From: Cetorhinus maximus
Lineage: Eukaryota
DNA: 64,000 nt
NCBI RefSeq assembly: GCF_964194155.1
Contig: NC_135891.1
Span: 67,208,001-67,272,000 of the forward strand
Reading direction: 5' to 3'
Each line of letters starts with the position of its first letter. The first letter of the stretch is position 1. The notes beneath the pieces are model-generated. The model saw only the letters and a program-made list of their open reading frames with translations, ran no database searches and was not told the origin of the DNA. A program made the position numbers and the translations under genes. Shown piece after piece: positions 12,451 to 63,760 of this stretch.

Positions 12451-12512
12451 CCATTCTAGTAAATAAAAACTATTGTGTCCAAATTATTGAAGAGGCCAAC
12501 TGTTGTACATTA

Positions 12513-13930: not shown

Positions 13931-14577
13931 ATATTTGGAAATAGCCCTGTGGAGCTGATTTCAAACCTGTGTTGGTATTTAGTGATTGCAAAGAAGGTAC
14001 AGAGACCTTTTGGATATTTGTAACGTGAAGGAAACTGAAAATTAGGTTTTGCAATACAGTACTGACTGCTCTGTTAACACTGGACTCCTCAATTTTAGTT
14101 TCTAAGAGTCAGTAAGCAAGGAATAGAAATCAGACAATAAGTCATGAAGAGATCTTAAGATCTATAATGTTATCGGAAATTGTTGATAAATTGGACTTGT
14201 GGTAGGGTCTGTGTCTATGAGTGTGTCTCAATTGGATTAAAGCCAGCTAGCCTGGGTGTTTTGATGTATAGTGGTTTGAGATGTTAATTAGATAAACATA
14301 AGCAGTAAAAGATAAAGTGCAATTTGCATTTGTTGAATAAACTGTTCAAAGGAATGGATAAAATCTTGCACCTAGCTGACACCAAGAGTTTATATTACTA
14401 ATAAAATTGGTGGAATGAAAGGATTATTGTTAGGAGAGGTAAAATTGAAAAAACCTAGTAATACAATGGAAAATTTACATTCAAAGGGGAAGCTAGGTAT
14501 AAATAGAAAGGAGTTTGTGGGTGTGAGTCAGAGGCATGTAAGATCTAACCAGCCTGTAAGCCAACAACTGTATCTGC

Positions 14578-14770
14578 AACAAAAACAGAATTACCTGGAA
14601 AAACTCAGCAGGTCTGGCAGCATCGGTGGAGAAGAAATCAGTTAACGTTTCAAGCCTTCACGGCCCTTCGGCAGAACTGAAGCATAGTTAGGAGAAAGGA
14701 GAAATATAAGCTGGTTTAAGGTGGGGGGGGGGCGGAGGGGGGGGGGAAGAGAGAAGTTGAGGGTGTGGTG
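14578..14770 (-). mobile_element. Penelope-like terminus
   Basis: aacaaaaacagaattacctggaaaaactcagcagg...; hammerhead-like fold at 14638-14680. Confidence 0.8.
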
Positions 14771-14945: not shown

Positions 14946-15308
14946 AAAAAATAACACCACACCCCCACTAGAGCTGTACCTTGTGTGTCCTGCCATCCAT
15001 TCTTAATTAGCACATTCTCTTAGATAATATCACCACCTTCAACACTTCTTTGTTCTTTTGTCTGTGACATCTTTTGATTATCTGCTCCTATCACTGCTTG
15101 CTTGACCCTACAACCACCCCCCCCCTCCCCCCCACCCCACTTTTCTCCCCCCACCCCACCCCCACCTTAAACCAGCTTATATTTCACCCCTCTCCTAATT
15201 TTACTCAGTTCTGTTGAAGGGTCATGAGAACCCGAAACGTCAACTTTATTCTTCTCCGCCGATGCTGCCAGACCTGCTGAGTTTTTCCAGGTAATTCTGT
15301 TTTTGTTT
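14946..15308 (+). mobile_element. Penelope-like 3' region with 15-bp TSD
   Basis: Direct repeat tgtatttaattagtt at 14931-14945 and 15309-15323; sequence matches the PLE 3' region at 58210-58513. Confidence 0.88.
15207..15245 (+). ncRNA. Candidate minimal type-I hammerhead ribozyme (variant core), GUC site
   Basis: AGTT-CTGTTGA-A-GGGTC atgag AACCC-GAAA-CG-TC-AACT: stem I, core, stem II, GAAA, palindromic ACGT in place of stem III. Confidence 0.6.
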
Positions 15309-17576
15309 TGTATTTAATTAGTTGTTAACTTAATAAATGTTTAATTTAGTTTTATATTAAAAAACCTCGAGGTTTTGTGGTTTTATTCCTGAATTCAGAG
15401 CTGCATCTCAAACATACCAGTTGAAAATATAGGTTATGACAGGTGTTCAAGTTTCCCTCTGGGATTTAAACAATTCAACCTTTACCAACTGTTGTGTCAT
15501 AACAGTAAAGAAAACTCACCCATAGGGAGATGCATTTAAGGGGAAGCTAGATAATAGACGATATAGAAAGGAACAGAAGGAAATGTAGTAGGGGTGAAGG
15601 AGGCTTCTGTGGCACATAAATACTTGTAGGGCCGAATAGCCAGTTTCCATGCTGTAAATTTAACATAATTCTATGTCGCCGGTATCCTTCCATCTATGAA
15701 CGATGTTGGACACACGGCAAACAGCCCATTTCAGGTGGGGTGTCTTCATATGGCGCACCTTTGCTGATGACTGAAGGGGCCAATCCTTTAGAGGCAGATT
15801 CTGCCACAAGTTCCACACATGAAGCTACCAAGTGTCATTGTGGGTTGTTGTTTTTGGCGTTGGAGTCTGTTACCAAGCTGCTGTAGCCGCTGGTCATTGT
15901 GGTAGTGTACACCGATCCACAGGAGGTGTTGCCATTTTCCTCAGTCTTCAGCTAGTGACTCCCTGGTGTGATGTTTAGGGCCTCCATATTAAGCTTGCAA
16001 GCATCCTTGAAGCAGAGCTTTGGATTTTCTACTAGTCATTTGGCTCCAGCTACCTCACGACACAGAAAGTCCTTGAGCATGTGACCACCTCCATCCTGCC
16101 TCTGCCAATGAAGCCATCTGTGTTTGATGAGTATCAACAAACTTGGGAGCTCTGCCTTTGAGAGGACTGTCGCAGTCATGATTTTATCCTGCCAGGATCT
16201 ACCCATAATTTGCCACAGACAGCGAAGATAGAAATTGTTGATCATCTTTTCTTGATATCTATAAGTTGTCCATGTTTCAATCATACAACAAGGTGCTGAG
16301 AATATAGGCCTTATAAACCATCAACTTGTTCGTAATGGTCAGTTTTATATTAATTCATGTGAGTTTTGAGTCAGCCAAAAGTGGCTGCTTTCCCTGTGCA
16401 TGCATCAAGTTCTGCATTGAGACAGATTGTCTGTCACCATGGCCCTGAGGTAGCAGAATTTGTTAACCACTTTGGGGTGTTACTTCGAGTGATCAAGGGA
16501 GAAGATACAAGGGAGATGTCCCATGATCAGACTTTTTTTGACACTTTATAGTCAGGGAGAACAAGCTACGAGCATGGAAGAGACAGTCTTTGAGAATTGA
16601 AGCTGAGTTTCCGTGTGGGCGACTAGTGCAATGTCGTCAGTGTGTAGGAGTTCCCTGAGTAGGATGTGATGTGTTTTTGTCTTCATTTTCAGTTTTGATA
16701 GATTGTAGAACTTTCCATCTCACCTACTGTGAAAGTTGGACTCCTTCCATATTGGAAGGCAAAGGTCAGGAGCATGGAGAAGATGATGTCAAACAGAGTC
16801 CGGGTTAAAACATAGACCTGTTTCATTCCATTTTTCACTTTGAAGTTGTCGGAAGTGGAGCATCAAACTGTACAGTGCAACGCATGTTGTCTTGGAAGGA
16901 GCGGATGAAACTGAGGAGCTTTGGTGGACAGCCAATTTTCCCCAAAACCTTGCAGTGTCCTGCTCTGCTGACAGTGTTATATGCCTTAGTGAGATCCATG
17001 AAAGTAAGGTAAAGAGGTATATCCCCTGTTCCCTAAACTTGTTTTTGGTGTATGGAGAAAATCATGTCTACAGTAGATCTGCCGGCATGGAAACTGCACT
17101 GTGCTACTGGGTACACTCGGTATGAAAATTGGCGGAGTCTTTTAAATATGACTCAAGCTGAGGCCTTCCCCATTATGCAAAGGAGTGAGATGCCCCTTTA
17201 TTTGTTGCAGCCTCCTCTGTTGCCTTATTTTTTGTATAGTGTGATGATTCATGCATCTCTAGTGGAATGGAGCCTACTTCCCAGCAGAGAAGGAGAAGAT
17301 CATAAAGGTATGGCAATAGATGGGACTGTCAGTGTTTGAGTAGTTCGCCTGGGTCTCCATATTTGCCAGCTGTCTTTATTTTTGCTGAGCAGTCTATGCC
17401 CTTCTTGGGTTTGAGTGTTGAGAGTTCTTCATCTAATTCCATGACAGGAAGCTGTGGGATGTCAATGTTTTATTAATTACATTGTTGAGGTTTAATGTCC
17501 ATTACCTTGTTAACCAAGTGATGGGTATTGGAACGCCTGTAAATGGGGATAGCTGGGACACTGGTGTCTGTCTAGT

Positions 17577-17873
17577 AACAAAAACAGAATTACCTGGAAA
17601 AACTCAGCAGGTTTGGCAGCATCGGTGGAGAAGAAATCAGTTAACGTTTCGAGTCCTCATGACCCTTTGGCAGAACTAAGTATAGTTAGGAGAAAGGTGA
17701 AATATAACTTTCCTAACTATACTCAGTTCTGCCGAAGGGTCATGAGGACTCGAAACGTTAACTGATTTCTTCTCCACCGATGCTGCCAGACCTGCTGAGT
17801 TTTTCCAGGTAATTCTGTTTTTGTTTTGGATTTCCAGCATCCGCAGTAGCTTTTAGCTTTTTGTTTTTATCTC
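17577..17873. mobile_element. Fold-back mini-Penelope: two inverted termini with 14-bp TSD
   Basis: Arms ~17577-17692 and ~17711-17825 are near-perfect reverse complements; TSD ggtgtctgtctagt at 17563-17576 and 17874-17887. Confidence 0.9.
17723..17765 (+). ncRNA. Candidate minimal hammerhead ribozyme (variant core)
   Basis: TCAGTT-CTGCCGA-A-GGGTC atgag GACTC-GAAA-CG-TT-AACTGA; perfect 6-bp stem I. Confidence 0.6.
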
Positions 17874-24724: not shown

Positions 24725-25085
24725 AAAGGATAAGACCAGGTAAAAATGGCAGATTTCCTCCCCTGAAAGTCAATAGTGAACCAGAGTTTTTTTAAACGAC
24801 AATCTGGTAGTTAATGAGACTAGCATTTTAATCCAGATTTATTAATGAATTGAATTTAAATTTCCCCAGTTTTTGTAGTGGAATTTGAATCTTTACCTCT
24901 GAAACATTAGTCCAGGCTTCAATCCGGTAGTTAATGAGACTAACATTTTAATCCAGATTTATTAATGAATTGAATTTAAATTTCCCCAGCTCTTGTGGTG
25001 GAATTTGAGTCTGTACCTCTGAAGCATTAGTCCAGGCTTCTGGATTGCTAATCCAGTAACATTACCACTATGCTACCATTGCCCT
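24725..25085 (-). mobile_element. tRNA-derived SINE with an internal 120-bp tandem duplication
   Basis: Minus strand has A-box-like TAGCATAGTGG and B-box-like GACTCAAATTC; 24801-24920 is repeated at 24921-25040. Confidence 0.75.
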
Positions 25086-27858: not shown

Positions 27859-28696
27859 AAAATGACAAATAAGTTAATCATTTACCCCTTAATAAACTTC
27901 CAAACACTTTAGCAATAATTGGATGTTAAAGACAATGCTGGTGGAAGCAGAAAGAAAAATAGTCATTATTAGTGCCAAATTGAATCAGTTACACTGATTC
28001 TATCTGCTGATGAGATTTTCTTATGTTTGTTACTGCAGCTTTGCCTCTGCTTGATGTTTGGGAACATCCAAAGTTAACAACTGCATTGTTGAACACATTG
28101 AGAACAAAAGTTATGAAGCTATTAAGCCCAAGTAATCAATTTTCATTTAAATTCTACCCACCTAAATATGTTCATGTGTTCTACACACTCCTTCTAAATA
28201 TATAATTCTTTAAACAAAATGGAAATATCTGGTCTCTGTTTGAAAACCATAGTTATTTCCTGCACTTCACTTAAGTTAGAGGGTTACAATGGTGGATTTA
28301 GATGAGGAAGGATGGGAGGAGGCTCGACTAGAACATAAACTCTGGCATGAACTGATTTCTACTTTTGCTTTAATTGTGTCAGCATCCCAGACTTTTATCC
28401 AAATATAGCCAACATTTATATGGGCAGCGCTAGCTAAACCAGGCATGACCTGCTGAAATTGTAGTGCTGATAATGAAATCTTTTAAATGGAAATAATCTA
28501 AAGATGAGTCTTGGAGATGTCAAGTAATGGGGCTGTGACTATTTCCTTTAGCAGCTTGTGGTGGGATTGTCCTGGGAAGAAAGATTGGTTGGCCCAGATG
28601 GCCTGTTTCTGTGCTGTACATCCTACATAATGAGCAGTGAACGCAGCATACCAGTTTGGCAGAGCTATATATAAATTGCTGTCTCATGCAGGAGTA

Positions 28697-28975
28697 ATTT
28701 TTTTTTATTATTCTTCCGTGTGATGTGGATGTTGGCCAGAATTTGTTGCCCGTCTCTAGTTGCCCTCGAGAAAGAAGTGGTGAGCCACCTTCTTGAGCCA
28801 CTGCAGTCCACCTGGTGCAGGTACTATTATAAGTGCTGTTATGAAGGGGGTTCCAGGATTTTGACTCACTGACACTGAAGCAATATAGTGAAGTGATATA
28901 GTTCCAAGTTAAGATGGTATGTGGCTTGGAGGGGAACTTGTAGGTGATGGTGTTCCCATCACCATGCATAGTTGT
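28697..28975 (-). mobile_element. LINE family B 3' tail
   Basis: Reverse complement of the tail at 12190-12450. Confidence 0.8.
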
Positions 28976-29784: not shown

Positions 29785-32015
29785 TCATAGATCGCGGCGT
29801 GTAAGTCAATCTATGAAACCTCGAGAAATCCTTTCAAAAAAGGGGTCGACTTATATGTCGAGTACAAAATGCAAATTGCCAGTGTGGCTGGCCACCATTT
29901 TGAAATGTGAAGAAGAAGCATAATGATAATTCAAATTAATGTGGCATAGTTTATTGAATTAATTAATTGTACAAAGGTACCTTCAACCACAATCAAAATG
30001 GTTTAAAACTGTCAAATTCTTGTCTTCTGCATCAGATGCATAGAGTTCATTGAACTCATTCTGAGTCAGCTTGGTTATGGCATAATTGTGAGGATCCCAC
30101 TCTGGGTCAGATATGGTACTTTTGCTTTAATATTATCCTTCCACAACAAATCATCATCATCATCTCCATCCATTGACTTGGATATTCTTATTTTTTGAAT
30201 GATCTTTTGACACTTGGTGCACTAATAGTGTCCCACAATTTGCCAATGAAATCACACAAAACATCAATACTCATATTCCCACTCCCACTGTAAATGTTTC
30301 TCTCCATCGACCATCCACCTATTCCATTTGGCGTGAACATGATCCTTGAATGGTTTGCTGGGGCACACATCCAAAGGTTGAACTACAGACATTAAACTCT
30401 GGTATAACTGCAATGTGGCTGTTATTTCTTCACAGGCATCTCTTAATTTCGTCAGTTATATGGGATCTGAACATGTCCCACACGAGTAAGCTGCATTCTT
30501 TACCAGGACGCCTATTCTACACATTATCAACCCATAACTTCACTCATTCCTAATCCAACTAGCTGTTGTCATGGACACGCACAAAAACTCCTGCAGGGAA
30601 CTTGATGTTCAGCATGGTTTTATGTTTGAAAATTACCATAGGCTTTAATTTTGTACCATCAGCCATGTCGGCTAGTACCACTGTGCATCTTGTCTCCTCA
30701 TATCCTGTCATTTTCACTAGAAATATTTTCGAACCTTTCCACTCTACAGTTTGGTTGCTGGGCATATTGAAACTCAGAGACTTTCATCGCTGTTGCTGAT
30801 GCGACATAATGGGTACTCGTGTTTTTGCCGCTGCCTGATGATGAATTGCTGGAAGCTGGACATTTTGACATTGAGGTCTTTTGGTAGTCTCCGACCAATC
30901 TTGGTCACCCGCTGCAATGCAAGCCTGTTTTTTTCCCTATTGTGGCTACACCAACTAGCTGTTGGTTTGAAACCTTTGCTGAACTCAGAGTTTGATTTGG
31001 CCCGCTTAAGTGTATTTGCATTTCTGGTGATGATGTAACCATTCCATTGATTTTTGAAGACTCATTCCAACCCATGCTACTCAAGATCTGCCCAGTGGCC
31101 TGTTCTCAAGGTGCATTTGGTCTTGGGTATCTTCTTCAGAGCAGATTCTCCTCCCCTCATTCTCACACCAGTTTTTTTTATTAGCACCAAATTTTCTCGT
31201 TGCAGCATGGTTATTTGATGGATTAGCAACTCCTACGACTGTTAGCTTGAAAACAACTTGCTACTTTGTTCATCTTGCTGGAGGACCCGTTTCTATTTGT
31301 CACTCACCATGCCATGTGCGGTCTGCTGTATATGGGCATGTTAAATTCCTGCGCATTTTCACAGTCCAGCCTGTGTGGCGCACCTTGGCAGTCCAGCCTG
31401 TGTGGCGCACCTTGGCAGTCCAGCCTGTGTGGCGCACCTTGGCAGTCCAGCCTGTGTGGCGCACCTTGGCAGTCCAACCTGTGTGGCGCACCTTGGCAGT
31501 CCAGCCTGTGTGGCGCACCTTGGCAGTCCAGCCTGTGTGGCGCACCTTGGCAGTCCAGCCTGTGTGGCGCACCTTGGCAGTCCAGCCTGTGTGGCGCACC
31601 TTGGCAGTCCAGCCTGTGTGGCGCACCTTGGCAGTCCAGCCTGTGTGGCGCACCTTGGCAGTCCAGCCTGTGTGGCGCACCTTGGCAGTCCAGCCTGTGT
31701 GGCGCACCTTGGCAGTCCAGCCTGTGTGGCGCACCTTGGCAGTCCAGCCTGTGTGGCGCACCTTGGCAGTCCAGCCTGTGTGGCGCACCTTGGCAGTCCA
31801 GCCTGTGTGGCGCACCTTGGCAGTCCAGCCTGTATTGCCTGCTTGATCCCATGCACCAGCTTACAGTGTAAGGTAAGTAAAACATGCATTTCTGGGATGA
31901 AAACTTGAGGCCGACTACTAATGCGAGCATAGCATTTCATACCGGAAAAATACAACAAATGAATGCAAACGCAGATTTTTGGCATCAGGTTGACTTTATA
32001 AACTGCCATCTACAA
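29785..32015 (-). mobile_element. Decayed pogo-family (POGK-like/Tc2-type) DNA transposon
   Basis: DDE_1 motif TGYEETRCTVVLADMADGTKLKPMVIFKHKT...FPAGVFVRVH, with Brinker/CENP-B HTH remnants upstream. Degenerate TIRs tcatagatcgcggcgtgtaagtcaa / ttgactttataaactgccatctacaa are each flanked by TA. Confidence 0.85.
31362..31833. repeat. 27-bp minisatellite, 17.5 copies
   Basis: Unit cagtccagcctgtgtggcgcaccttgg; 31362-31820 is exactly 17 x 27, plus a 13-bp partial copy; one G>A at 31477. Confidence 0.98.
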
Positions 32016-38289: not shown

Positions 38290-40760
38290 TACTTTTAAAA
38301 ATTCTTTAATGGGGCGAGGCCAGCCTTTTTATTGCGCATCCCTATTTGCCTTCGCAGGTGGTGGTGAGCCACTGCCTTGTACCGCTGCACCCATGTGGTG
38401 TAGGTACAGCCATAGTGCTGTTAGGGAGGGAGTTCCAGGATTTTGATCCAACAACAGTGAAGTAATGGTTATTATAGTTCCAAGACAGGATGGTTTGTGG
38501 CTTGGAGGAGAACTTGCTGTGGCAGTGTTCCCATGCATCTGCTGCCATTCTTTGGGTTTGAAAGGTGCTGTCGATGGAGCCTTGGTGACTTGCTGCACAT
38601 AATCTTGTAGCTGGTACACACTGCTGCCACTGTGTGTCGGTGATGGAGGGAGTGGCTATTGAAGGGGATGGATGGGATGCCAATCAAGTGGACGGCTTTG
38701 TCGTGGATGATATCACATAGCATCATAGTATCTTTACAGTGCAGAAGGAGGCCATTCAGCCCATCAAGTCTGCACTGGCTCTCTGAAAGAGCATTCCACC
38801 TAGTCCCACTCCCCTGCCTTATCCCCATAACCTTGCACATTCTCTCTTTTCAGGTAGCAATCCAATTCCCTTTTGAATATCTCCATCGAACCTGCCTCCT
38901 CCACCCTTTCAGGAAGTTTGTTCCAGACTCCAACCACCCTCTGGGTGAAAAAATTTTTCCTCACATCACATTTACTCCTTTTGCCAATTATTTTGAATCT
39001 GTGCCCTCTAGTTCTTGATGTCCTCTTGAGTGGGAACAGTTTCTCACTACTTACCCTATCCATAACCCTCAGGATCTTGAATACCTCTATCGAGTCTCCT
39101 CTCAGCCTTCTTTTCTCCAAGGAAAACAGTCCTTGGTGTCGAGCTTCTTGAGTGTTGTTGGAGCTGCATTCATCCACGCAAGTGGAGAGTATTCCATCAT
39201 GCTCCTGACTTGTGCCTTGTAGATGGTGGACAGGCTATGAGGAGTCAGGCAGTGAGTTACTCGCTGCAGAATTCCTAGCCTCTGACTTGTTATTGTAGCC
39301 ACAGTATTTATATGGCTAGTCCAGTTTCAATTTCTGGTCAATGGTAACCCCCAAAATGTTGATAGTGAGGGATTCAGTGACGGTAATGCCATTGAATGTC
39401 AAGAGGAGATGGTTGGATTCTCTCTTGTTGGAAATGGTCAGCCGAAGCCTGAAGACTGTCCAGGCCTTGCTGGATATGGGCACAGACTGCCTCAGTATCT
39501 GAGAAGTCACAAATGGTGCTGAACGTCATGCAGTCATCAGTGAACATCCACACTTTGATGTTATGATGGAGGGAAGGTCATTGATGAAGCAGTTAAAGAT
39601 GGTTGGGCCTAGGACACTACCCTGAAGAACTCCTGTAGTGATGCCTTGGAACTGAGATGATTGACCTCCAACAACCGTCTTCCTTTGTGTTAGATATGAC
39701 TCCAGCCAGCGAAAAGTTTTCCCCTTGATTCCCATTGATTCCAGCTTTGCTAGGCCACCTTGATGCCACGCTCAGTCACATGCTGCCTTTATGTCAAGGG
39801 CAGTCACTCTCACCTCATCTCTTGAGTTCAGCTCTTTTGTCCATGTTTGAACTGAGGCTGAAATGAGCTCAGGAGCTGAGTGGGCCTGGCAGAATGCAAA
39901 CTGCGCATCAGTGATTAGGCTGAGTAAGTGCCGCTTGATAGCACTGTCGACAACCCCTTCCATCACTTTACTAATGATGGAGAGTAGACTGATGGGGCTG
40001 TAATTGGCTGGGTTGGATTTGTCCTGCTTTTTGTGTACAGGACATACCTGGGCAATTTTCCACATTGCTGGGTGGATGCCAGTTTTGTAGCTGTACTGGA
40101 ACAGCTTCGCTAAGGGCGCAGCTAGCTCTGGAGCATATGTCTTCAATACTATTGCTAGAATGTTGTCACAGCCCATAGCCTTTGCAGAATCCAGTGCCTT
40201 CAGCTATTTCTTGATACCACATGGAATGAATCAATTGGTTGAAGACTGGCATCTGTGATGCTGCAGATCTCGAGGAGGCCGAGATGGATCATCCACTTGT
40301 CACTTCTGGCTGAAGGCTGTTGCAAATGCTTCAGCCTTATCTTTTGTACTAATGTACTGGGCTCCCCCATCTTTGAGGGTGGGGATATTTGTAGAGCCAC
40401 CTCCTCCTGTTAGTTGTCTAATTGTCCATCACCATTCATGACTGGATGTAGCAAGACTGCAGAGTTTAGATCTGATCCGTTGGTTGTGAGATTGCTTAGC
40501 TCTTGTCAGTTGCATGCTACTTTCACTGTTTGGCATGCAAGTAGTCCTGTGTTGTAGCTTCACCATAGGTATGCCGGATGCTGCTCCTAGCATGCCCTCC
40601 ATTCTTTGTTGAACCAGGGTTGATCCACCAGCATGATGGTAATGATATCCTGGGCCATGAGGTTACAGATTGGTTGTATACAATTCTGCTGCTACTGATG
40701 GCCCACAGCGCCTCATCGGTGCCCAGCTTTGAGTTGCTGGATCTGTTCGAAATCTGCGTG
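38290..40760 (-). mobile_element. LINE family B ORF2 (RT) and tail, interrupted by a CR1
   Basis: LKTYAPELAAPLAKLFQYSY, WKIAQVCPVHKKQDKSNPANY.PISLLS, ALDIKAA, QGSVLGPTIFNCFINDL. Confidence 0.9.
38710..39133 (-). mobile_element. Young CR1 3' fragment inserted in family B
   Basis: GLFSLEKRRLRGDSIEVFKI...RKNFFTQRVVGVWNKLP; nearly identical to 55271-55538. Confidence 0.9.
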
Positions 40761-43700
40761 CTTTGCATGTATTTTGCAAGCAGCCAGTTCTTGCAGTACA
40801 CAGGCTTTGTAACTGAAGTGGGAGTAACATTCCTTCACATATTGAAGAATGTAAAAGCAAAATACATGAAAGCCAATAGGGAAAATCCAAATTCTGAAGG
40901 CTCCAAATTAGTGATGTATACCTAGTGGGGTCAGGTCCTGCATTCCTAAGATCATTTTGAACTTCAGGTACTTCTGAAATGTCTTAAATAATGGATTTTT
41001 GATTTTTTTTATTGAAGAAGGTGAGGCAATTTCAACAGCCCAACCAGGTTATCACCTCCCAAAAGTGACTTAAATCACGCCTACATCCAAAGATCCCCTC
41101 CCAAGTTTATAAAGGTATTCCAAACCCCATGCTTTGATCCAGTAGCAGAGAGATACTGTACCACATCAAACCCTCTCTCTTCACTGAAATACAATCACCT
41201 CTTCCAACCCTGCGAGTTCAAACTCTTTCCACCTCGCATCAACCTGATACTCATCTCCCCTCTGATACAGTTCAAACAGGTACTCCTCTTCCAGCCTCCC
41301 ATTGAAACTTGAATATTTCTCCCCTCCCATTAATATTGATAATGTCTGTCTAATTCTCACTTTTACTGCTTCCATTAATCCTGACATTTCCATTCCTGCT
41401 CTGGCTAAAGTGTTGCTCCCATCCTTTTCCCTTCCCCGTTGCCTTTCATTGCTCCCCTGCTCTTTCTTCATTTACCACCCATTCTTTCATGAATGAATTG
41501 TACTTCCACTCCCTTCTCCTCTTGCCTCCATTTCCCCTTTCCACTCTGCTTCATTGCCATTTATTCCTCAATCCATTAACCCTTTCCTTCCTTTCATTAA
41601 CATTCATTGCCTCTTTCATTGGCCTCTTTCATTACCATCTATTTGACCTTCATCCATTTCCAACCCCTCTCCCACTCCTGCTGGAGTCCAGGTGCTAATG
41701 GGACAAACCATGTGCCTCCCTTCAATCACTTGTCCACTAAGCCACTTTCTACCGCGAATGGCAATGATTTTGCCAGCCGTAAGAGTGAGTTCATGTTCTC
41801 GCATGTTGCCATCTGCAGCAGAGACTGGCTGGGACCACCATCGTGACTGGTAGTGAGAGAGGGATCCCTGATCTAGTGCATCAACAGGGGAAACTGGCAT
41901 TGGGCAGGCCATTGAGAGGAATTGGGGCCCTGATAGGAGCAAGGGCGGGGAGGTGTAACAGTTCTTAACATAGTGTGATTAACGCTGAGTTTTTTTTAAA
42001 AATCAATAAATAGTGACAAATCACTGAAATACTGAAAATTAATGTGCAACTGGTTAATGCGAAACTAGCTTATTCTCATTTGATAACTACAATATGTTCA
42101 TTTATTAACTACAATAAGTAGGTTTGTTAGTTTACTTTCATATTTATCTTACAAATCAGCCTAGTATTAGGAAGGATGGAGAAATGCATATGCAGGCATG
42201 TGTGCGATTTCTGTACCTAGTTCACATAGCAAAGCAGTTTCTTTGTTATGACCCTAAATCTTGCCATTGAATGACAAGTCGTTGAGTAGTGGCCGATGTA
42301 GCCAAAGCATTTTTATAAAGCAGAGTGACAAACTTACTTACGTTGGGCACCTAAATCCACTCTGGAATTTGGAGAATGATGATACCAAGACACTAAAACT
42401 GGAGTTTCTCGACAGGATAGAATTTTATCCTGCCAGGCCCTGGTATAGAATGCGATGTGAAACCAGCTTAAAAAGTATCCCAGAGGGAACATTGTAATTC
42501 TGGTAAAGGAAGTCTGCCTTTGGAAGGAGCATCCCTTGAACCTGGAGAAAGATTGGAATGCGACCAATGGCGGCTTCAGTGTGTTATGCAGGCAATCAAC
42601 ATCTCTTAGAATAAATCAGGAATAAAAAAGTTAGTGTTATTAATGGTGACCATGACGATATCAGATTGTCATAAAAAATCCTTCTGGTTCACTAATGTCC
42701 TGTACCTGGTGTTGACTTGTTCTGGGCTATATGTGACTCCAGATCCACAGCAATGTGATTAACTCTTAACTGTGCTCTGAAGTGGCCAAACGGCTTCAAA
42801 AGGTACAATAACAATCAAACCAGACGTGGCACCTGGTATTGACTGAAGTGTTGGCTTTGGACATGACAAAGACACATCCTGCTCAGTCGACTCTGCAAAG
42901 TCCTCCATGTTAACATGTAGAGACTTGTGCCAAAATTGGAAGAGCTGGCCCACAGATTCGTCAAGCAACAGCCTGACATAATCATACTCAAAGAATCATA
43001 ACTTGCAGCCAACGTCTGAGGGCAGACCTACCACAGTGATATACTGCCCAGGGAAAATGTTACTGGCAATCCTCAACATTGACTCTGGACCCCATAAAAT
43101 CTCATGACATCAGGTCAAACATCGGCAAGGAAACCTCCTGCTGGTTTCCACCTACTGCCCTCCCCCATCTAATGAATCTGTATTGCTCCATGTTGAACAC
43201 TGCTTGGAAGAAGCACTGAGGATAGAAAGGGCACAAAGTGTACTGTGAGGAGGAATTTAATATCCCATTTCTAAGAAAGGCTCAGTAGCATCAGTACTTC
43301 TAAGCTGGCCAAGTCCTGAAGGGCATAGCTTCCAGATTGGGCTTGCAGAACGGTGGTGAGAACAAACATGAGGGAAAAATCCATTTGACAATACTTGTCA
43401 TAGATCCATCTGTCCATGCTAGTATTGATCAGAGCGACCAGCACTCAAACTTTGTGGCGACTAACCCTGGCTCAATGAGGACTTTGGGAGACCATGCCAA
43501 GAGCAGCACCAGGTGTACCTAAAAATGAGATACTAACCTGTGAAACCACAAAACATGACAGAGGTAAGTGATCCCAAAGTCAAAATTCTTCAGCCACATA
43601 GAGTCATGAATGTTGGCGGACATTTAAACAACTAATGAGCAGAGAAGCCTCCATGTATATACCCTTTCTCAATGATGGCGGAGTCCAGTACGAGTGCAAA

Positions 43701-44332
43701 AGACAAGGCTGAAATGTTTGCAGCCATGTTCAGCCAAAAGTGCCAAGTGGATGATCGATCTCGGTTTCCCACTAAGGTCGCTATCATCGCAGATGTCAGT
43801 CTTCTGCCAATTTAGTTCACTCAATGTGATGCCAAGAAATGACTGCATTGGACACAGGAAAGACTATGGGTATCCCAGCTGTACTGCTGAAAACTTGTGC
43901 TCCAGAACTAACTATGCTTCTAGCCAAGTTGTTCCAGTCCAGCTACAACATTGCCATCTGCATTGAGTGCGCAGATTGTGAAGCCAGGAGTTAGGTGAGT
44001 GAGGGGGTTCGGTGAAGAGGGGAACTATAAATTAATGAAGAAAAATAAATTTAAGTAACACAAAGATTGCAGGACAGGTGATGTGCCGCAGCTGCAGCAT
44101 GTGGGAGCTCCTCTGTGCCACCACAATCCATGACAACCATATCTGTAGTAAGTGTCTGCGGCTTGAGGCGCTCTGGCTCCGAGCTAATGAGCTGAAGGCT
44201 GAACTGCAGACATTGCGATACATCAGGGAGGGGGAAATTTACCTGTACACTTCTGCTCCAGAAGGCAATCTCACCCCTTAGGCTAGCATTGTCTGATTTT
44301 GTCAGTTGGCAGGGACAGGAGGATGTGATTGC

Positions 44333-44445
44333 GAATTCAAATTCCACCACCTGCCGTGGAGAGATTTGAACCCAGGTACTCAGAGCACTACCCTGGGTCT
44401 CTGGATTACTAGTCCAGTGACAATACCACTATGCCACTACCTCCC
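44333..44445 (-). mobile_element. tRNA-SINE head (same family as 24725-25085)
   Basis: Minus strand A box TGGCATAGTGG and B box GGTTCAAATC. Confidence 0.75.
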
Positions 44446-44674
44446 ACCGAATTAGAATGCATTAGTACTGTAGTAAGCGATGACTTCGTTCTAAAGATCA
44501 AGATGTAGCATCAGTATGGGTGGAACTAAGAAACAGCAAGAGGCAGAAAACATTGCTGGGAGTTGTTTAAACAGCAGGGGTAATGTAAATCACAGTATAA
44601 ACCAGGAAATTAGAAGCATGTGTAACAAAAGTAATACGGTAATCATGGGGCATTTCAAACTATATATGGATCGG

Positions 44675-45785
44675 GTTTTTTTAAAATTCATGCATGGGCT
44701 TTGCTGGCTGTGGGCCAGCATTTATTCCCCACCCCTAGTTGTCCTTGAGAAGGTGGTGGTGAGCTGCTGCTTTGACCCACTGCAGTCCATGTGGTGTAGG
44801 TACACCCATAGTGCTGTTAGGAAGGGAGTTCCAGGAGTTTGACCTAGTGACTGTGAAAGTACGGTGATATATTTACAAGTCAGGATGGTGAGTGATTTGG
44901 AGGGGAACTTCCAGGTGGTGGTGTTCCCATCTGTCTGCTTTACTTGTCCTTCTAGATGGTACTAGTTGTGGGTTTGGAAGGTGCTGTCTAAGGAGCCTTG
45001 GTAAATTACTGCAGTGTATCTTGTAGATGGTACACAATGCTGCTACTGTGCGTCGGCGGTGGAGAGAGTGAATGCTTGCGGATGTGGTGCCAATCAAGCA
45101 GGCTGCTTTGTCCTGGGTGGTGTCAAGCTTGAGTGTTGTGGGAGCTGCACTCATCCCGGCAAGTGGAGAGTATTCCATCACACTCCTGACTTGTGCCTTG
45201 TAGATGGTGGACAGGCTTTGGGGAGTCAGGAGGCAAGTTACTCGTCGTACAATTCCTAGCCTCTGACCTGCTGTTGTAGCCACAGTATTTATATGGCTAG
45301 TTCAGTTCCTGGTCAATGGTAACTCCCAGGATGTTGATAGTGGGGGATTCAGCAATGGTAATGCCATTGAACGTCAAGGGGCGATGGTTGGATTCTCTCT
45401 TGTTGGAGATGGTCATTGCCTGACACGTGTGCCATGAATGTTACTTGTCATTTGTTGGCCCAAGCCTGGATATTGTTGCATTTGGACATGGGCTGCTTCA
45501 GTATCTGAGGAGTTGAGAACGGTGCTGAACATTGTGCAATCATCAGCAAACATCCCCACTTCTGACCTTATGATGGAAGAAAGGTCATTGATAAAGTAGC
45601 TGAAGATGGTTGGGCTGAGGACACTACCTTGAAGAACCCCTGTAGTGATGTCCTGGAGCTGAGATGTCAGACCTCCACAATCACAACCATCTTTCTTTGT
45701 GCTAGGTATGGATCTAACCTGCAGAGAGTTTTCCCCAATTCCCATTGACTCCCGTTTTGCTAGGTCTCCTTGATGCCACACTCGG
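44675..45785 (-). mobile_element. LINE family B 3' fragment nested in the CR1
   Basis: GQRLGIVRRVTCLLTPQSLSTIYKAQVRSVMEYSPLA; MFADDCT. Confidence 0.9.
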
Positions 45786-47320
45786 TAAATCTAATTAGTA
45801 CTAATGTTGTGGAGGATGAATTCTTGGAATGTATGTGAGATAATTTTCTAGAGCAGTATGTTGAGGAACCAACTACGGAGTGCGCTATTTTAGACCTAGT
45901 ATTGTGCAATGAAAAGGGGCTAATTAATAATTTTGTTGTAAAGGAGCCTTTAGGAACGAATGACCATAATATGATAGAATTTTACATTAAGTTTGGAAAT
46001 AATGTAGTTCAATCAGAAGCTAGGTTCTTAAACCTAAACAAAGGAAACTATCAAGGTATGAAGGGCAAATTGATTATGGTGAATTGGGAAACTACCTTAG
46101 AAGGTATGACGGTAAATAGGTAATGGCTAGCATTTAAAGAACTAATACATAGTTTACAACAAAAATACATTCCTTTAATATATAAAAACCCAGCAATGAA
46201 AGTGTCCCAATTGTGGCTAACAAAAGAAATCAAGGATTGTATTAGATCTAAGGAAGAGGTGTAGCCTGAGGATTGGGAACATTTTAGAGTTCTGCAAAGG
46301 AGGGCAAAGAAGAAGATTAAGAAAGGAAAAATGGAATATAAGAGTAAACTAGCGAGAAACATAGAAGTGACTGTAAAAGCTTCCAAAGGTATGTAAAAAG
46401 GAAAAGATTAGCAAAAACAAATGTGGGTCCATTGCAAACAGGGTCAGGAGATTTTGTAATGGGGAATAAGGTAGTGGCAGAGAAACTAAACAATGTTTGT
46501 GTCTGCCTTCACGGAGGAAAATACCAAAACCTCCCAGAAATACTGGACAATTCAAGGGATTAGTGTAAACAAGAAACTGCAAGATATTAATATTAGTTTA
46601 AAAATAAATAGTACTAGAGAAATTAATGGGACTTAAAGTAGGTAAATCCCTTGGACCTGATGATCTATGTCCCAGAGTGTTGAAAGAGGTGGTTGAAGAG
46701 ATAGCAGATGCACTGGTGGTCATCTTTCAAAATTCTATACATTTTGGAATGGTTTCTACAGATTGAAAGGTGGCAAATGTAACCCCACTATTTAAGAAAG
46801 GAGGGAGAGAGTAAACGGGGAACTACAGATCTGTTAGCCTAACATCAGTTGTGGGGAAAGTGCTTGAATCTATAATAAATGATATGATAACAGGACACTT
46901 AAAAAATAATGGTAGAATTGGGCAGAGTCAACATGGGTTTATGAAAGGGAAAGCATGTTTCAATAGACTTGTTGGAGTTTTTTGAGGATGAAACTAGCAG
47001 AATAGATAAGGGGGAATCGGTGTATGTGGTATATTTAGATTTTCAAAAATCTTTTGATAAGGTTCCACACAAGTGGTTAGTAAACAAAGTTAGAGCACAT
47101 GGGATTGGGGGTATATGGATTGAGAACTGGTTAACGGACAAAAAACAGAGAGGAGGAATAAATTGGTCATTTTCAGGTTGGCAGGCTGTGACTAGTAGGG
47201 TACCGCAAGGGTAAGTGCTTGGACCCCAGCTATTCACAATCTATGTCGATGATTTGGATGTGGGGATTAAATGTAATATTTCCAAGTTTGCAGGTGACAT
47301 AAAATTAGGTGAAAATATGA

Positions 47321-47455
47321 AATAAAAACAGAAAATGCTGGAAAAACTCGGCAGGCCTGGCAGCATCTGTGGAGAGAGAAACAGAGTTAACGTTTTGAGT
47401 CTGTATGACTCTTCTTATTTCAGATTTCCTGCACCCACGGTATTTTGCTTTCATT
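47321..47455. mobile_element. Mini-Penelope insertion with inverted tail and a degenerate ~16-bp TSD
   Basis: ttaggtgaaaatatga (47305-47320) versus ttaggcggaagtgtga (47456-47471), differing by transitions only. Confidence 0.75.
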
Positions 47456-50400
47456 TTAGGCGGAAGTGTGAGTTGTGAGGAGGATGCAAAGATACTTCAA
47501 GTGGATTTGGAGATGCTAGGCGAGTGGACAAAAATTTGGCAGATGTAATACAATGTGGAGCAATGTGAGGTTATTCACTTCAGTAGAAAAAAACAAAAAT
47601 ACGAGCATTTCCTAATTGGTGAGAGGCTGCGATATGTTGAACTTCAAAGCGACTTGGATGTTCTTGTTCATGAGTCTCTGAAAGCTGGCATACAGATACA
47701 GCAAGCAATTCAGAAGGCAAATGGTACGTTAGCTTTTATTACAAGAGGATTTGACTATATAAGTAAAGATGTAATACTGCAATTATATAAAGCCTTGGTG
47801 AGACCACAACTTGGAGTATTGTGTGCAGCTTTGGCCTCCTTACTTATGGAAAGATATACTTGTCTTAGAGGGAGTGCAAAGAAGGTTCACCAACTTAATT
47901 CCTGGGATGGGGGGATTGTCCTACGAGGAAAGATTAAATAGACTGCGTCTTTATTTTTTCGAGTTTAGAAGAATGTCGGGTGATCTTATTCAAACATACA
48001 AAATTCTTACAGGACTTGACAGGGTAGATGCAGGAAGGATGGTTCCCCTGGCTGGAACAGTCTCCAAATAATGGGCAGGCCAAATACGACCGAGATGAGT
48101 AGGAATTTCTTCACTCAAGAAGCTGGTGAATCTTTGGAATTCTCTGCCCCAGAGGGCTGCAGAGGCTCAGTTGTTGAGTATGTTCAAGATTGAGATTGAT
48201 ATATTTCTACATATTAAAAACATCAAGGGATATGGGGATAGTGCAGGAAAATGGTGATGAAGTAAATCAGCCATGATCTCATTGAATGGCGGAGGGGGCT
48301 TGAAGCGCTGAACGGCCTACAGCCCCTATTTTTTATGCTCTTAGCTAACCAAAAAAGTGAAAAATTACCCAGCTCATGTCCTTTCCACCAAAAGCAGAAC
48401 AAGTGCAATCCACCCATTTACCACCCATCACAAACAATACTTACTCAGCAACAACCAGCCCACTGCTCAGTTTGAGTTCCCCCAGGACTGCTCAGCTCCA
48501 GACCCCCTTACAGCCTTATAGACAAAAGAGCTGAATTCCAGAGATGAGGTGAGAGTCACAGTCCTTGACATCAAGGCAGCATTTCACGGAGTGTGGCATC
48601 AAGGAACCCGAGTGAAATTAAATCATGGGAATCGGGTGGAACTTCTGCAGTGGCTGGAGCCATACCTAGCACAAAGTAAGGTGTTTGTGATTGTTGGAAG
48701 CGAGTCATCGCTGCAGGAGTTCGCCAGGGTAGTAAACAGGCCCAACCATCTTCAGCTGGTTCACCAATGACCATTATAACATCAGAAGTGGGGATGCTTG
48801 CTCGTGATTCCATGTTTGGTTCCATTTGCAATCTTTAAATAACAAAACAGTCTCTGGATACATAAAGCATGATTAGGACAATATGCAGACTTGGGCAGAT
48901 GAGTGGCAAATAACAATAGTGCTGCACAAGGCATTGACCATCCCCAACAAGAGAGAATTTAACCACCTGTTTGTAACATTCATTGTCATTACCATCATTG
49001 AATTCACCTACTGTCAGCATCTTGGGGATCACCATTTATCATATATTTAACTGGACCAACCACAAAATTACTGTGGCCTCAAGAACACAACAGAGGCTAG
49101 GTATTCTGTGGCAAGTACCTCATTTCCTGGCTCCCCAAAGCGTTTCCACAATCTACCAGGCACAAGTCCGATGTAATGGAATATTCTTTGCTTGCTTGGT
49201 CGAGTGCAGTTCCAACAACACTCTAATCTTGACGCAGTCCAGGACATAGTAGTCTGCTCGATAGGGACCTCATCCACCACCTTAAACATTCAGTCCCTCC
49301 ATCGGCACAGTGTGTACCATCTACAAGATGCACTTCAACTCTGCAAGGCTACTTTGAAAGTACCTCCTAAACGCAAACCCTACAACCCAGCAGGCACATG
49401 GGAACGCCACCATCTCCAGGTTCCCCTCCAGTTACACAGCATCCTGACTTGGATTTATATCACAGTTCCTTCATTGTTACCGTCTCAAAATCAAGACTTT
49501 TAATGGCACACAATCATGAGGTGTGAACAGCTGTTGGAGTGCCCAAAATAGTTGACATAGTTTAAGGAGCACCAGTATAATTGGCACCTATAGCAAATAA
49601 TTTGGGACAGTGTAAGTGTTGTGAACATATATATTCCTTTGCCTATTTACTTAAACCATGCCAGTTTAAGGCTTAAAATGGCAGTAGGAACATCTTCGGG
49701 CCAGTGGTACAAATTTCAACTTCTAATTAAATTGATCTTTTGTGATTGCTACATGTAAGTGTCTCTCGCTATTTGTCATTGTTTGCCTTCCCTCCCCCAT
49801 CTGTGCCTTTGCCTCAGGGATCAGTTAGGAGAATGTTTACAATTTCTTACTATCAATAAAATTCAGATGATGAGGTTTTGTTTGTTTTCAAAATTCAAAT
49901 TAAAAGTTCAAATGATTTTGAAGAATGAGGGAGCGTGTCTCAGTCAGCTCTCTCAAATGAGGGTATTTACATATCAAAACCAACAAAAGCTGCAAAAGGT
50001 GTGGAACCTGTACAGTCTGCCATGTTTTTAGCTCTCTCTCGCATATACAGAATCTCGTTGAAATTTGACCTCTACCTTTTCTTAGAAAATAGCCAAACAT
50101 AATTTATTAGAGATTGAGATATGTATCTCATTATTTGGCTAGCTCAAATGCAATTTCTGCATTTTGGGAAATTGTGCACTGCAGTTTAGACCACAGGATC
50201 TGCCTTCAATTTACAGAATTACCACACTGCGGAAAAAATTCCATTCTCAGGCAAGAATTTTGGAAGAGATTGTTCTCCAATCTTTAATGAAGATAATAAA
50301 CACGTAAGACAATTCAGTGGATGAGTTAAATCATATTGTGAAATATGTATTTTTTTTGTATCTACAACCTTACATGGATTAGAAAGTTGAGTCAATAAGA

Positions 50401-57845: not shown

Positions 57846-58513
57846 TAAAAGCAAAACACTGCAGATGCTGGAAATCCAAAACAAAAATTGCCATTTTAAC
57901 ACTCCACCCTGCTCTCGTGCCCACATGTCCGTCCTTAGCCTGCTGCATTGTTCCAGTAAAGCTCAACGCAAACTGGAGGAACAGCACCTCATCTTCCGAC
58001 TAGGCACTTTACAGCCTTGCGGACTGAATATTGAGTTCAACAGTTTTAGATCATGAACTCTCTCCTCCATCCCCACCCCCTTTCCGATACCCACACCCTT
58101 TTTTTCCCAATAATTTATATAGATTTTTCTTTTCCCACCTATTTCCATTATTTTTAAATGTATTTCCATCCATTGTTTTATCTCTAACTTTTAGCCTATT
58201 TCGATCCCTTCCCCCCACCCCACCCCCACTAGGACTATCTGTACCTTGCTTGTCCTGCTTTCTACCCTTAATTAGCACATTCCTTAGATAATATCACCAC
58301 CTTCAACACCTCTTTATCCTTTTGTCTATGACATCTTTTGGCTATCTCCACCTATCATTGGCCCTCTATCCAGCTCTACCTGCCCCACCCCCCAAACCAG
58401 CTTATATTTCACCTCTTTTCTACTTTTCCTTAGTTCTGTTGAAGAGTCATACGGACTCGAAACGTTAACTGCGTTCCTCTCTGCAGGTGCTGCCAGACCT
58501 GCTGAGTTTTTCC
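57846..58513 (+). mobile_element. Penelope-like 3' region (end of GIY-YIG plus terminus) with inverted tail and 14-bp TSD
   Basis: CHFNTPPCSRAH...LEEQHLIFRLGTLQPCGLNIEF; TSD aaatttaaggagga / aaatttaagaagga. Confidence 0.9.
58432..58470 (+). ncRNA. Candidate minimal hammerhead ribozyme (variant core)
   Basis: AGTT-CTGTTGA-A-GAGTC atacg GACTC-GAAA-CG-TT-AACT; perfect 5-bp stem II. Confidence 0.6.
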
Positions 58514-60803
58514 AAATTTAAGAAGGAGATAGACAGATTTTTAATTAGTAACGGGTTGAAAGGTTATGAGGAGAGGGTGGGAAATTGGAGTTGAGGCCAA
58601 AATGAGATCAGCCATGATCGTATTGAATGGCGTGGCAGGCCCGAGGGGCTGAATTGCCTACTCCTGCAAACAGAGGTAGAGTGTATTTGCATTTTTTGAA
58701 GAGAACATTCAAAATGTGGGCTGAAAACTTGACCCCTTTCTAGCAGCTACCAAGCAATATTTTTATATTACTAATAAAATTGGTACTATGAAAGGGGTTT
58801 CATTGTTAAAAGGAAAAGTTCAAAGAGACTGGTGAGACAATAAGAATTTGAATTCAATCAGTGGTGGTAGGTATAACTTCAGTAGTTTTCGGGTGTGCAG
58901 AGCAGAAGCAATGTAAGATCAAAGGCAAGTTTTAAGCCTCCAACTTGGCTCCACAATGAAAAGAACCTAATTTTGAAAACGTAAGGTGAAAATGCTTTGT
59001 CTGGTGTCTGGTTAAGTCTATGGGTTGCTGTTGCCTTAGTGGAGATTAGTTTGGGAATTTGTTAAAAGTTATGATAGTAGTAATTTGTAGCCATGTGTGT
59101 ATATATTTTTAACCTGTGTAAATTAATAAAATGTTTCAATTAGTTAATGTAAAACCTTGAGAACTGGTGGTCTGATTCCTGAAGTTTAGTCGCACCTCAA
59201 ACATAACGTTTAAAATTATAGGTTATGACAGTTGCTTAAAGATTCCCTCTGGGATTTTTAAGTAACTCCACTTTACCAACTGCATCGGTCATAATAACTT
59301 GTATTTTCCAAGGAATGGCATTCTTATTCCTCCTACCAAAATGCAGCAGCTCATACTTATTTACATTAAAATGTATTTGTCATTTACACATCCATTCTGC
59401 AAGTTCATTAATGCCATTTGTGTTTTGTCACATCCTTTCTCAATAATAACTATAAGCCTTAGCATGGTGTCCTCTGCTCAGGTTCATTACCCATTACTAA
59501 GTCTAGCAGTGATTCTGCTCTTGCTAGATTTCTTACATACTGCGTAAATGAAGACCTGTTTAAAAACTGCATTCCACTTTCACTACCTCTTGCTGGTTTA
59601 TTTGAGGGTGGGGGAGGGATAGTTGCAATCTCCGATGATTATTATGTTGTTCATTTCAAAAATTTACTTGCACAATTCCTCTTCTACTTTCCTTCTACTA
59701 TCGGGTGGTCAGTGGGATATTCCTATTATCCTGATGGATCCCTTCTTGCCCTTTCTCAATCCACATGGGGATTCTGTTTCTATCTTAATGTTAGTTATGT
59801 CCCTTTATTCAATTGCTGTTAAATTGGCTCTAATTAGTACAGCTACCTCTCCTCCCTTTCTACATGCATTTTAATCTGCAATATTTTACTGCCAGTCATA
59901 TTCATTATGAGATTATGAGGCCAGTTCCCTCAATAGGCATGGGCTAGAGGTTGACAAAATAGGAAAGTGTTCCATTTTTCAGTAGTAAAATTCCCTATCT
60001 TGACGATCATGCAATATTACCAGATTTTTAACCTAGTATCACACTGTTATGGACCACATGCAACGTAAATTAGAATTTGTACATGAATAGACATAAAGAC
60101 ATGAATGCATGCAAGAGCTGTGTCTCGGATGCTAAGGCTAAACTGTGATCTTAGAGAAAGTCATCCAAGGCTCTCAATCTAGGATTTCAATGGTTTGGGA
60201 CAATCATTTTTTTTAGCAATTCATTATGACACAGACATATGACCAGGTATGCGTAGGTTCCATATCTTAAATAATATAAGTGACTTTTATAAACATCCAT
60301 TTGCAATTCTATGTTTCAACTAATATTGACTGAACCAAAAACCTTTTTGGAAACACCCTATGACTACATTTATCCATTGCATAAGTTGGAGTTCAATTAT
60401 AGTTGCAGACAATTCTTAGAATGTTCTTGTTGAAAATTGCACAGCAATTTGCCTCAGCACTTTGGGCTTGGTAGGGCAAAAATTGTGCAGAATCTAAACA
60501 TCTGATTATTGTCCATTGACTCTTCTGCGTTTATCCGTTTGCAACGTGTGGATTAGGGTTGCCTACTCTAGCTCGACATGTCCTGGGAGATGTCAGTGGA
60601 AGTAATGTCACAGAATCCCAGCAGGGTAGTGCAAACGGGGTGGGGTGGGGGGGCAAAATCCAAAGCCCCAGACATTAGCGAGAGGGGTTAGTCTTCTTTG
60701 CACATAAATGAACAAAAGAGTTACCACTTTTGTCTTAATATCCTTGTTCAGGTAATGCTGCGTTGGGTGCCTGCTGGAACCATGACCAGGTGACGGCCCT
60801 TTA

Positions 60804-61864: not shown

Positions 61865-63760
61865 GACTCTATCCTGTCGGCCCTCTTAACCACCTTACCT
61901 ATTTGTGCCTTTAGCTTCAGGGATCTGTGGACTTGCACTCCAATATCCTTCTGTTGCTCTCCCCTCTCAGTACCCTTCCATTTATTGTGTATTCCCTTTC
62001 CTTGTTTGTCCACCCCCAAATGCATTATTTCACTTTTCTCTGGACTGCATTCCATTTGCTTCTTTTCTGCCCACCTAACCATCCATTGATATCTTCCTGC
62101 ACTTTACTGCCGCCTTCCTCACTATCAATCACATGCTATCAGCCACATGCCAATTTCCATATTATGTGCAAACTTCTTAATCATGCTTCGTATGTTTTGT
62201 CTCAATCAATGATATATACCATGATAAGCAAGGGGCTTAGTACTTCCTTCAGAACCTGACCTGAAACTGCCTTCCAGTCTCAAAAACAAATGTCAACCAT
62301 AAGCCTTTGCTTCTATCACTGAGCCAGTTTTGGATCCAGCTTGCTACTTGCCCTTGGATCCCCTGGGCTCTTACTTTTCTGATCAGTCTGTCATGTGGAA
62401 CCTTGCCAAAAGCTTTGCTAAAATCCATATAGAAAACAGCAAAGGTTCTACCCTCAATGACCCTCCATGTTACCTCCTTAAACATTTCAATCAAATTAGT
62501 CAAACATGGCTTTCCATTATCAAATCCATACTGACTGCTGTTGATTAATCCATGCCTCTCTAAATGATGATTTATACTGTCCCTCAGAATTTTTACCCAT
62601 GTCTTCCACCACTTCTGTAATATAAAAGCAAAATACTGTAGATGCTGGAAGTCTGAAACAAAAACAGAAAATGCTGGAAAAACTCAGGTCTAGCAGCATC
62701 TGTGGAGAGAGAAACAGATTTAGCGTTTTGAGTCCGTATGACCCTCCTTCAGAGCTGAAGAGAAGCGTTTCTATTTGGTCTTATGTTTTCTTTCGTTATC
62801 CTCTTTTTATTTATTTATAAAATAGCTTTGCAGTTTCCTTGATTTTACTTGCCAATATATTTTCATGCCCTCTCTTTGCTTTCCTAATTTCCTATTTAAT
62901 TTCACCTTGCACTTCTATACTTCTTTAGACTTTCTGCAGTATTGAGTTCTCTGTAACTGATGTGCTTCCCTTTTTTGCCTTATCCTACTCTGTATACTCT
63001 TTGACATCAGTGAGGTCTAGATTTGGGAGTCTATCTCTCTTTCTTTGTGGGAGCATATTTGTTCTGAGCCCCCTTTAGCTCCTCCTTGAATGCCTGCCAT
63101 TGCCCTGACACTTGTTTACCTTGCAGAAACTGTTTCCAGTCCACGTTTGCCAAATCGTTTCAATTAGTAAAATTGGACTTTCTACAACTAGAAACTTTTA
63201 CTCTTGGTCTATCCTTAGCCTTTTCAGTAACTGCTCTAAATCTAACTGAATGTTCTCCCACCGATACCCAGTCCACCTGTCCAGCTTCATCCTGAAAACT
63301 AAGTCCAGAACCATGCCCTCTCTTTAGGCTTGCTAGGCATTGGCAAAAATAGTTCTCAATTGCATTTTAAGAATTCTGTATCCTCTATATCTTTTACACT
63401 AAATTTATTCCAGTTAATATCAGGGTAGTGGAAATCCCTCTACTGTTATTGCCCTATTATTTCTGCACTTCCCTGCTGTTTGCCTGCATATTTGCTCTTC
63501 TCTCTGCCTTTGACTGTTTGGGGAGTCTATTGTATACTTCTCGCAATGTGATTGCCCCTTTTTGTTCCTCTGTTCAACCCATATGGCTTTATTTGATGCT
63601 CCTTCTAGCATATCACCCCTCCTGACATCTGTGAGTGTTTATTTAACCAATATTGTGATTCCCTTCCTCATGCTGCTTTTCTACACCCTTCTCAATGCCA
63701 TTTGAATCCCTGTAACTAGGAACGTTAAATTGGCATTTCTGTCCTTTAAGCCATTTTGGT
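61865..63760 (-). mobile_element. Decayed CR1 ORF2 (APE and RT pieces) with a PLE terminus at ~62621-62765
   Basis: YMDFSKAFGKVPHDRL; WAEKKQMECSPEKSEIMHLG; APE remnant EEQICRQ...KCRNNRAITV. Confidence 0.8.

Follow-up and report, generated by a model that had tools for sequence, protein, structure and literature searches.

A tRNA-headed Zenon LINE of sharks and rays, its SINE derivatives and its putative transcription by Pol III

Described elements that combine LINE and SINE parts

By the usual working division, LINEs are transcribed by Pol II into capped, coding RNAs and SINEs by Pol III into non-coding ones. As precedents, ruminant BovB elements are said to carry SINE pieces at their 5′ end, and the human L1 promoter was, in an old report, reportedly Pol III-dependent.

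As far as the accessible portions of the papers cited here go, Tx1-Mar LINEs begin with a small-RNA head (U1/U2) that they have in common with SINEU elements (Kojima 2015, PMC4494074) and in this respect resemble the element described below, but they belong to another clade and their snRNA heads come without an internal promoter; most SINEU families contain oligo-T, a feature that in the author's view rules out Pol III. Bipartite SINEs derived from RTE and Vingi elements take their body from the 5′ part of a LINE and their tail from its 3′ part (Kojima 2018, PMC5786205), as do the SINEs considered here. That survey names only RTE and Vingi as body donors and places the tRNA head on the SINE, whereas Zenon is a CR1-group donor whose coding LINE is itself headed. 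In Lepidoptera, the Persaeus SIDE comprises non-autonomous deletion derivatives that keep 5′ and 3′ parts of Zenon and have arisen several times, much like the short elements of sharks, but Persaeus is described as having neither tRNA homology nor a Pol III promoter (PMC6740152), while in shark Zenon both the LINE and its derivatives are headed.

Zenon elements have been reported from five elasmobranchs as always ORF1-less, with a poly-A tail and a consensus length of 2.9-3.3 kb (Stuart et al. 2026, PMC13343379). The main text of that paper holds no match for tRNA, promoter or Pol III, and SINE occurs once, in the title of a reference. The full-text literature searched, which also included PMC4824008, PMC7245038, PMC4758252, PMC11481361, PMC8620236, bioRxiv 443036 and PMC5804259 (supplement), yielded no account of a Zenon with a tRNA head or with transcription by Pol III; subscription papers, Repbase or Dfam notes and several supplements could hold one. 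The sequences themselves are already published; the head, the SINE derivatives, the T-run loss and the missing AUG have gone unremarked in the literature searched.

The headed family and its decayed copy in the window

The window analysed here is a 64-kb stretch of the Cetorhinus maximus genome. Judged by alignment and reading frame, positions 42611-49492 (+) of this window are a dead, decayed and truncated copy of an abundant shark-and-ray Zenon LINE, the full-length form of which is 3.3 kb long and ORF1-less. The column majority of 19 near-full copies (3325 nt) served as the family reference; the target copy covers approximately 145-1092, 1280-1856, 1867-1940 and 2001-3135 of it at 68-79% identity, with both ends missing and a nested CR1 splitting it in two. 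Using a profile derived from the head/body region of 29 natural copies, we located the SINE-type body of the Zenon 5′ module at 42611-42786 (+; alignment and nhmmer match to profile positions 120-299, E 8e-27). The match begins only at position 120, just past the expected position of the B box, and the tRNA-like head is missing from this 5′-truncated copy, as had been seen in the sequence-only reading. That reading had also likened 42610-42700 to the body of a minus-strand SINE at 24760-24845, and a local alignment to about 24770-24845 with a score of 40, compared with a mean of 19-20 and a maximum of 29-31 in 300 shuffles, bears the homology out. The body continues on the same strand into the start of an endonuclease near 42900, again as proposed, on the evidence of translation and of Pfam endonuclease and RVT_1 matches in relatives.

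Body and endonuclease are separated by a linker at 42787-42899 (+), the boundaries of which, drawn from alignments and reading frames, are approximate. In better-preserved copies the linker, read in the frame of the endonuclease, extends its N-terminus by an Arg-rich stretch, and it has a conserved out-of-frame ATG inside. The decayed endonuclease domain and the start of the RT-proximal region follow at 42900-43959 (+; translation, and majority up to 1092 and 1280-1856 at 68-69%); this stretch is broken by frameshifts and stops and has lost ~190 nt internally. The interrupting element at 43960-48349 (+) is a canonical CR1, identified by matches to CR1 loci at 44454-44676, 45780-47321 and 47456-48349, with its first 370 bases assigned by eye. 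Beyond it, the decayed RT and C-terminal region occupies 48357-49492 (+; majority 1867-1940 and 2001-3135, 73-79%). An ORF running through the RT to a tail near 49500 had been predicted for the element once the CR1 is removed; the RT stretch was found, but the tail was not, as the copy stops at 49492, which is majority position 3135 and ~100 nt short of the ORF end at 3232 (the tail starts at 3235). Full-length copies have A-rich ends, and poly-A is missing from the target copy because it is 3′-truncated.

The nested CR1 itself holds further inserts, among them an isolated tRNA-like head of the young subfamily at 44333-44448 (-; 90% to majority 5-120, E 2e-31) and a younger, 5′-truncated Zenon copy with an intact tail at 44676-45789 (-; 89% to majority 2157-3296). 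Also nested in it is one copy of a short, often inverted or paired repeat family that occurs in the window at 217-347, 12511-13197, 14572-14739, 14955-15315, 17577-17861, 47310-47468, 57888-58514 and 62618-62765. More 5′-truncated Zenon pieces lie at 11733-12450 (+), 28694-28960 (-), 38313-38715 and 39134-40755 (both -), at 77-84% to the majority, and a tandem array with a period of 54 bp and ~98% identity occupies 31351-31833. The minus-strand SINE at 24733-25083, of the older subfamily, consists of a tandem double tRNA-like head and a partial body (profile matches 24733-24913 and 24943-25083) and is cut off at family position 240, its tail absent. Within it, at 24800-25040, a 120-bp head unit is duplicated in tandem with 93% identity, which makes it a double-headed SINE fragment.

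Natural copies match Exo_endo_phos(_2) and RVT_1 in Pfam, and the traits by which Zenon is recognised, namely endonuclease and RT in one frame, no ORF1 and a poly-A tail, are all present. The nearest named proteins overall come from moth, amphioxus, sponge and shark; the nearest non-shark proteins, of which the named ones are from moth, amphioxus and sponge, are ~35-41% identical over the query, and PDB offers distant L1 and R2 matches only. Seven published consensuses from five shark and ray species (CarCar, HypSab, RhiTyp and ScyCan Zenon-1 and SquAca Zenon-1 to -3; PMC13343379 supplement) begin with the same head, body and linker, almost letter for letter over the first 400 nt as compared by eye. 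Judged by these 400 nt, the family is the published elasmobranch Zenon and not a different element. Two hagfish and one coelacanth Zenon consensuses start differently over the same length, also by eye; these being headless, and Persaeus being without tRNA homology or a Pol III promoter, the head was likely gained on the elasmobranch line. As side observations, two annotated shark proteins, a zinc finger (P0002) and an aldo-keto reductase (P0007), include pieces 68-71% identical to the Zenon frame, probably through annotation read-through into repeats, and a 302-codon intronless, membrane-transporter-like open frame that may be a retrocopy or a large exon adjoins a Zenon copy at L064:4964-5869 (-).

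Full-length Zenon runs from a tRNA-like head with A and B boxes (at nt 17 and nt 81 of the majority) through a short body and a single endonuclease-RT frame to an A-rich tail. A query across the junction gave 6054 candidates in the 3.99-Gb genome, of which 40 were scored, but such a query selects for the junction; we also searched with endonuclease DNA only, so that the junction was not preselected. Among 29 other copies obtained in this way, 19 are preceded on the same strand by the head (with an insertion in one and deletions in two), 26 retain at least a portion of the head, the body or the linker, and three start at the endonuclease with no 5′ module; no second common 5′ sequence appears in the majority line of this set, 18 of the 29 rows of which were displayed. 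The 5′ start is fixed, with homology stopping sharply a few bases ahead of the A box. Of 36 long loci fetched, 19 could be aligned in one piece with a reference copy over 2.8 kb or more, a proportion that is not a frequency, the loci having been chosen from earlier matches. The SINE-endonuclease junction, on the uniqueness or generality of which the original proposal hinged, is found family-wide and in the seven published consensuses.

The tRNA likeness of the head is visible in a fold that ARAGORN, run with relaxed settings, places at the same position in most of 29 heads, calling Thr(AGT) in 19 of them; as such settings often produce calls by chance, the isotype assignment is provisional. 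When the head was compared with 22 distinct genomic tRNAs of five isotypes, the best match was Thr(TGT), with a score of 34 that only marginally exceeds the null maximum of 32. Rfam returned no match to tRNA or another family at the head, and the 5′ module folds no better than its shuffles (z -1.42).

Target-site duplications are short or absent, the best exact matches being 4-9 nt in 15 copies and 10 nt in one case by eye, with no null for comparison. A 12-bp deletion between short direct repeats at the end of the body marks a subfamily (L032, L035-L037, L040, L043 and L045) and preserves the frame of a short upstream ORF. The head/body profile matched none of 80 metagenomic LINE loci, which are distant (24-49% identity) and in many cases without a 5′ end, and the body motif found no match in viral contigs or in the full text of papers. 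Coral metatranscriptome contigs have the same variant pattern as other runs; we treat them as probable carry-over and do not count coral as a host.

SINEs with both ends of Zenon

Head and body occur in short elements as well as in the LINE. Among 57 head/body matches, 16 continue into the endonuclease and 34 are SINEs that end in the Zenon tail, which answers the question, raised with the original proposal, of whether stand-alone SINE copies terminate in the tail of this LINE family. With a young head/body query (n = 29), 14 matches were LINEs, 13 were tailed SINEs and 2 fell in neither class; with the window's older SINE as query (n = 28) the corresponding numbers were 2, 21 and 5. In young SINEs position 298 is mostly joined to 3223, and older SINEs have several other junctions. 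The short derivatives have the hallmarks of tRNA-derived SINEs (SINE2), namely A and B boxes in a tRNA-like head and the 3′ tail of a partner LINE.

Our first guess for these short derivatives had been SacSINE1 or another Deu-SINE, which are likewise tRNA-headed shark SINEs with a conserved body (Luchetti et al. 2017, PMC5499810). SacSINE1 has a Deu domain and an L2 tail in that account, whereas the Zenon SINEs have a Zenon tail and a body that, by eye, is unlike the Deu alignment of EbuSINE1/2 and AmnSINE1; the alignment is that of the hagfish paper's supplement (PMC7245038) and does not include the SacSINE1 sequence itself. The identity was rejected.

In a tree of 86 head/body copies, the bootstrap of which had not converged, three subfamilies were recovered, each with LINEs and SINEs in it, and the LINE/SINE label changes 10 times compared with 25.7 in shuffles. 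Such a tree is consistent with a succession of LINE masters that repeatedly underwent deletion, or else with repeated exchange of heads. The SINEs found include none with a Zenon 5′ body and a different tail, and no pre-existing SINE donor was found among them. The idea that a SINE had been captured as the 5′ UTR of the LINE is thereby only half sustained: a tRNA-type head does sit on the LINE, but the capture of a ready-made SINE is not supported, given that all tailed SINEs found carry the Zenon tail. The LINE may have gained no more than a tRNA-derived head, placed before a 5′ UTR of its own.

T-run loss, translation and the choice of polymerase

Pol III terminates at runs of at least four T on the non-template strand. 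On the coding strand of the 3325-nt majority, such runs (T4+) number 0 where 4.7 are expected (P=0.008) and runs of at least three T (T3+) number 6 where 22.4 are expected, and runs of A, C and G are not depleted. As a control we used a single family from the same genome, the resident CR1, the majority of which (24 loci) has 42 T3+ runs with 37 expected and 10 T4+ runs with 10 expected. When copies were pooled, 19 Zenon copies (59 kb) contained 19 T4+ runs against 99.6 expected (ratio 0.19) and 24 CR1 copies (48 kb) contained 208 against 150 (ratio 1.38). The target copy has 0 T4+ runs in sense, with 6.8 expected, and 19 in antisense, with 14.6 expected; taken alone, it has no T3 depletion (29 runs, 28 expected), and the three other Zenon pieces tested in the window are too short for T4 significance.

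The result depends in part on the null. Recoding the frame with the base weights of fourfold sites leads to an expectation of 4.8 T4 runs (P=0.004), and shuffling the element's own synonymous codons to one of 2.1, which is not significant (P=0.09); the T3 depletion is significant under both. A first-order Markov null likewise leaves the T4 loss non-significant (P=0.18), and both this null and the codon shuffle retain part of the bias under test. Most of the 43 metagenomic LINE loci long enough for the test are at or above expectation. Two are T4-poor and have no head, which indicates that T-run loss can have other causes: L245, a distant, unheaded LINE with no B box found upstream (T4 10 vs 30.6, T3 52 vs 84), and the short L232 (1.7 kb; T4 0 vs 2.2). 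For Zenon, the T-run loss is a strand- and family-specific signal, albeit an indirect one, and full-length copies are probably transcribed by Pol III from the tRNA-like head.

The majority contains one 975-codon frame with two stops, which opens at nt 308, after a TAG, and has the endonuclease motif from nt 446. Residues 47-245 of this frame hold the endonuclease motifs, and no in-frame Met occurs before residue 291 of 975, past the endonuclease. Upstream there is only a frame of 60-90 codons that overlaps the start of the endonuclease; the sequence-only reading was right that an ORF1 is absent, which is normal for Zenon (PMC13343379). Of 46 copies, 41 retain the out-of-frame ATG of the linker. 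Two copies had hinted at an in-frame start at the body ATG, but this was rejected, as the spacing from it to the endonuclease preserves the frame in 13 of 38 copies and breaks it in 25. Read-through may also follow the second ATG, where codon three is TAG in 18 of 42 LINE copies and GAG in 9; some subfamilies have a further stop. Of 37 variants shared among the 19 copies, CpG sites excluded, 21 fall on third codon positions, compared with 355 of 1118 singletons, and this bias suggests that the headed masters were likely under selection for their protein. No intact copy was seen, the longest open frame listed for the element being 751 aa, and the family may be inactive in the Cetorhinus maximus genome for that reason.

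We consider it probable that Zenon is a LINE transcribed by Pol III, translated non-canonically and shedding SINEs by internal deletion. An ancestral Zenon would have acquired its head by a template switch onto a tRNA-like RNA, no later than in the common ancestor of sharks and rays. Every new copy would then have brought its own Pol III promoter, and selection would have stripped oligo-T terminators from the coding strand. The uncapped RNA would likely be translated by a non-AUG or internal start, by stop read-through after an upstream ATG or by frameshift from the short overlapping upstream frame. SINEs, copied in trans by the LINE protein, would have arisen repeatedly through internal deletions that spared ~300-350 nt at the 5′ end and ~70-150 nt at the 3′ end. 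The fullest form of this claim, that since the shark-ray common ancestor an autonomous 3.3-kb LINE has been transcribed end to end by Pol III, purged of oligo-T, translated without cap or AUG and productive of its own SINEs by deletion, we regard as evenly poised between true and false.

The dense packing of SINE and LINE pieces in the window would have allowed the two parts at the target locus to be chance neighbours, a SINE having inserted beside a 5′-truncated LINE. The identical junction and spacing recur at dozens of loci and in consensuses of five species, and a contig from another organism also bridges head/body and endonuclease; the endonuclease-only search and the published consensuses refute this reading, to which we give practically no credence. 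The choice of polymerase is a different matter. Capped RNA is easier to translate, and Zenon could be a Pol II element on which the head is a passenger or weak accessory promoter, with transcription from the body or by host read-through and with T-run loss as a codon or RNA-composition bias. The T4 loss does not reach significance with either conservative null, L245 is T4-poor yet headless, and the crocodilian Tx1-Mar elements, with their promoterless U1/U2 heads and the oligo-T of SINEU (PMC4494074), suggest that RNA heads can ride without Pol III. We nevertheless find a Pol II element unlikely: A and B boxes are retained in the seven consensuses, from sharks and a ray, and the loss affects only T and only the coding strand, while the resident CR1 and all but a few of the 43 metagenomic LINEs lack it. 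Moreover, a capped RNA should keep an in-frame AUG, and the predicted proteins of most close relatives begin with a Met 1-30 residues before the endonuclease.

Labour might instead be split, such that the Pol III RNA is the template that is copied, protein comes from occasional Pol II read-through of intact copies, and the element amounts to a long SINE that keeps its frame. This would account for both the T-run loss and the poor start-codon situation without cap-independent translation, but the Pol II RNA too would have no in-frame AUG, and the third-position bias points to a functional protein having been maintained in the copied lineages, as is more readily achieved when one RNA is both copied and translated; we regard such a division as quite improbable. 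Transcription by Pol III together with non-canonical translation of the same RNA is the reading we retain.

Deletion of a headed LINE would be a direct route of SINE birth, in a clade outside the SINE-body donors reported in the survey cited above (PMC5786205). If the preferred reading is true, Zenon would be SINE and LINE in one unit and would provide a natural test case for the translation of uncapped Pol III RNA, and the division of LINEs and SINEs by polymerase would no longer hold, given a very abundant LINE that has its tRNA promoter intact but neither terminators nor a start AUG.
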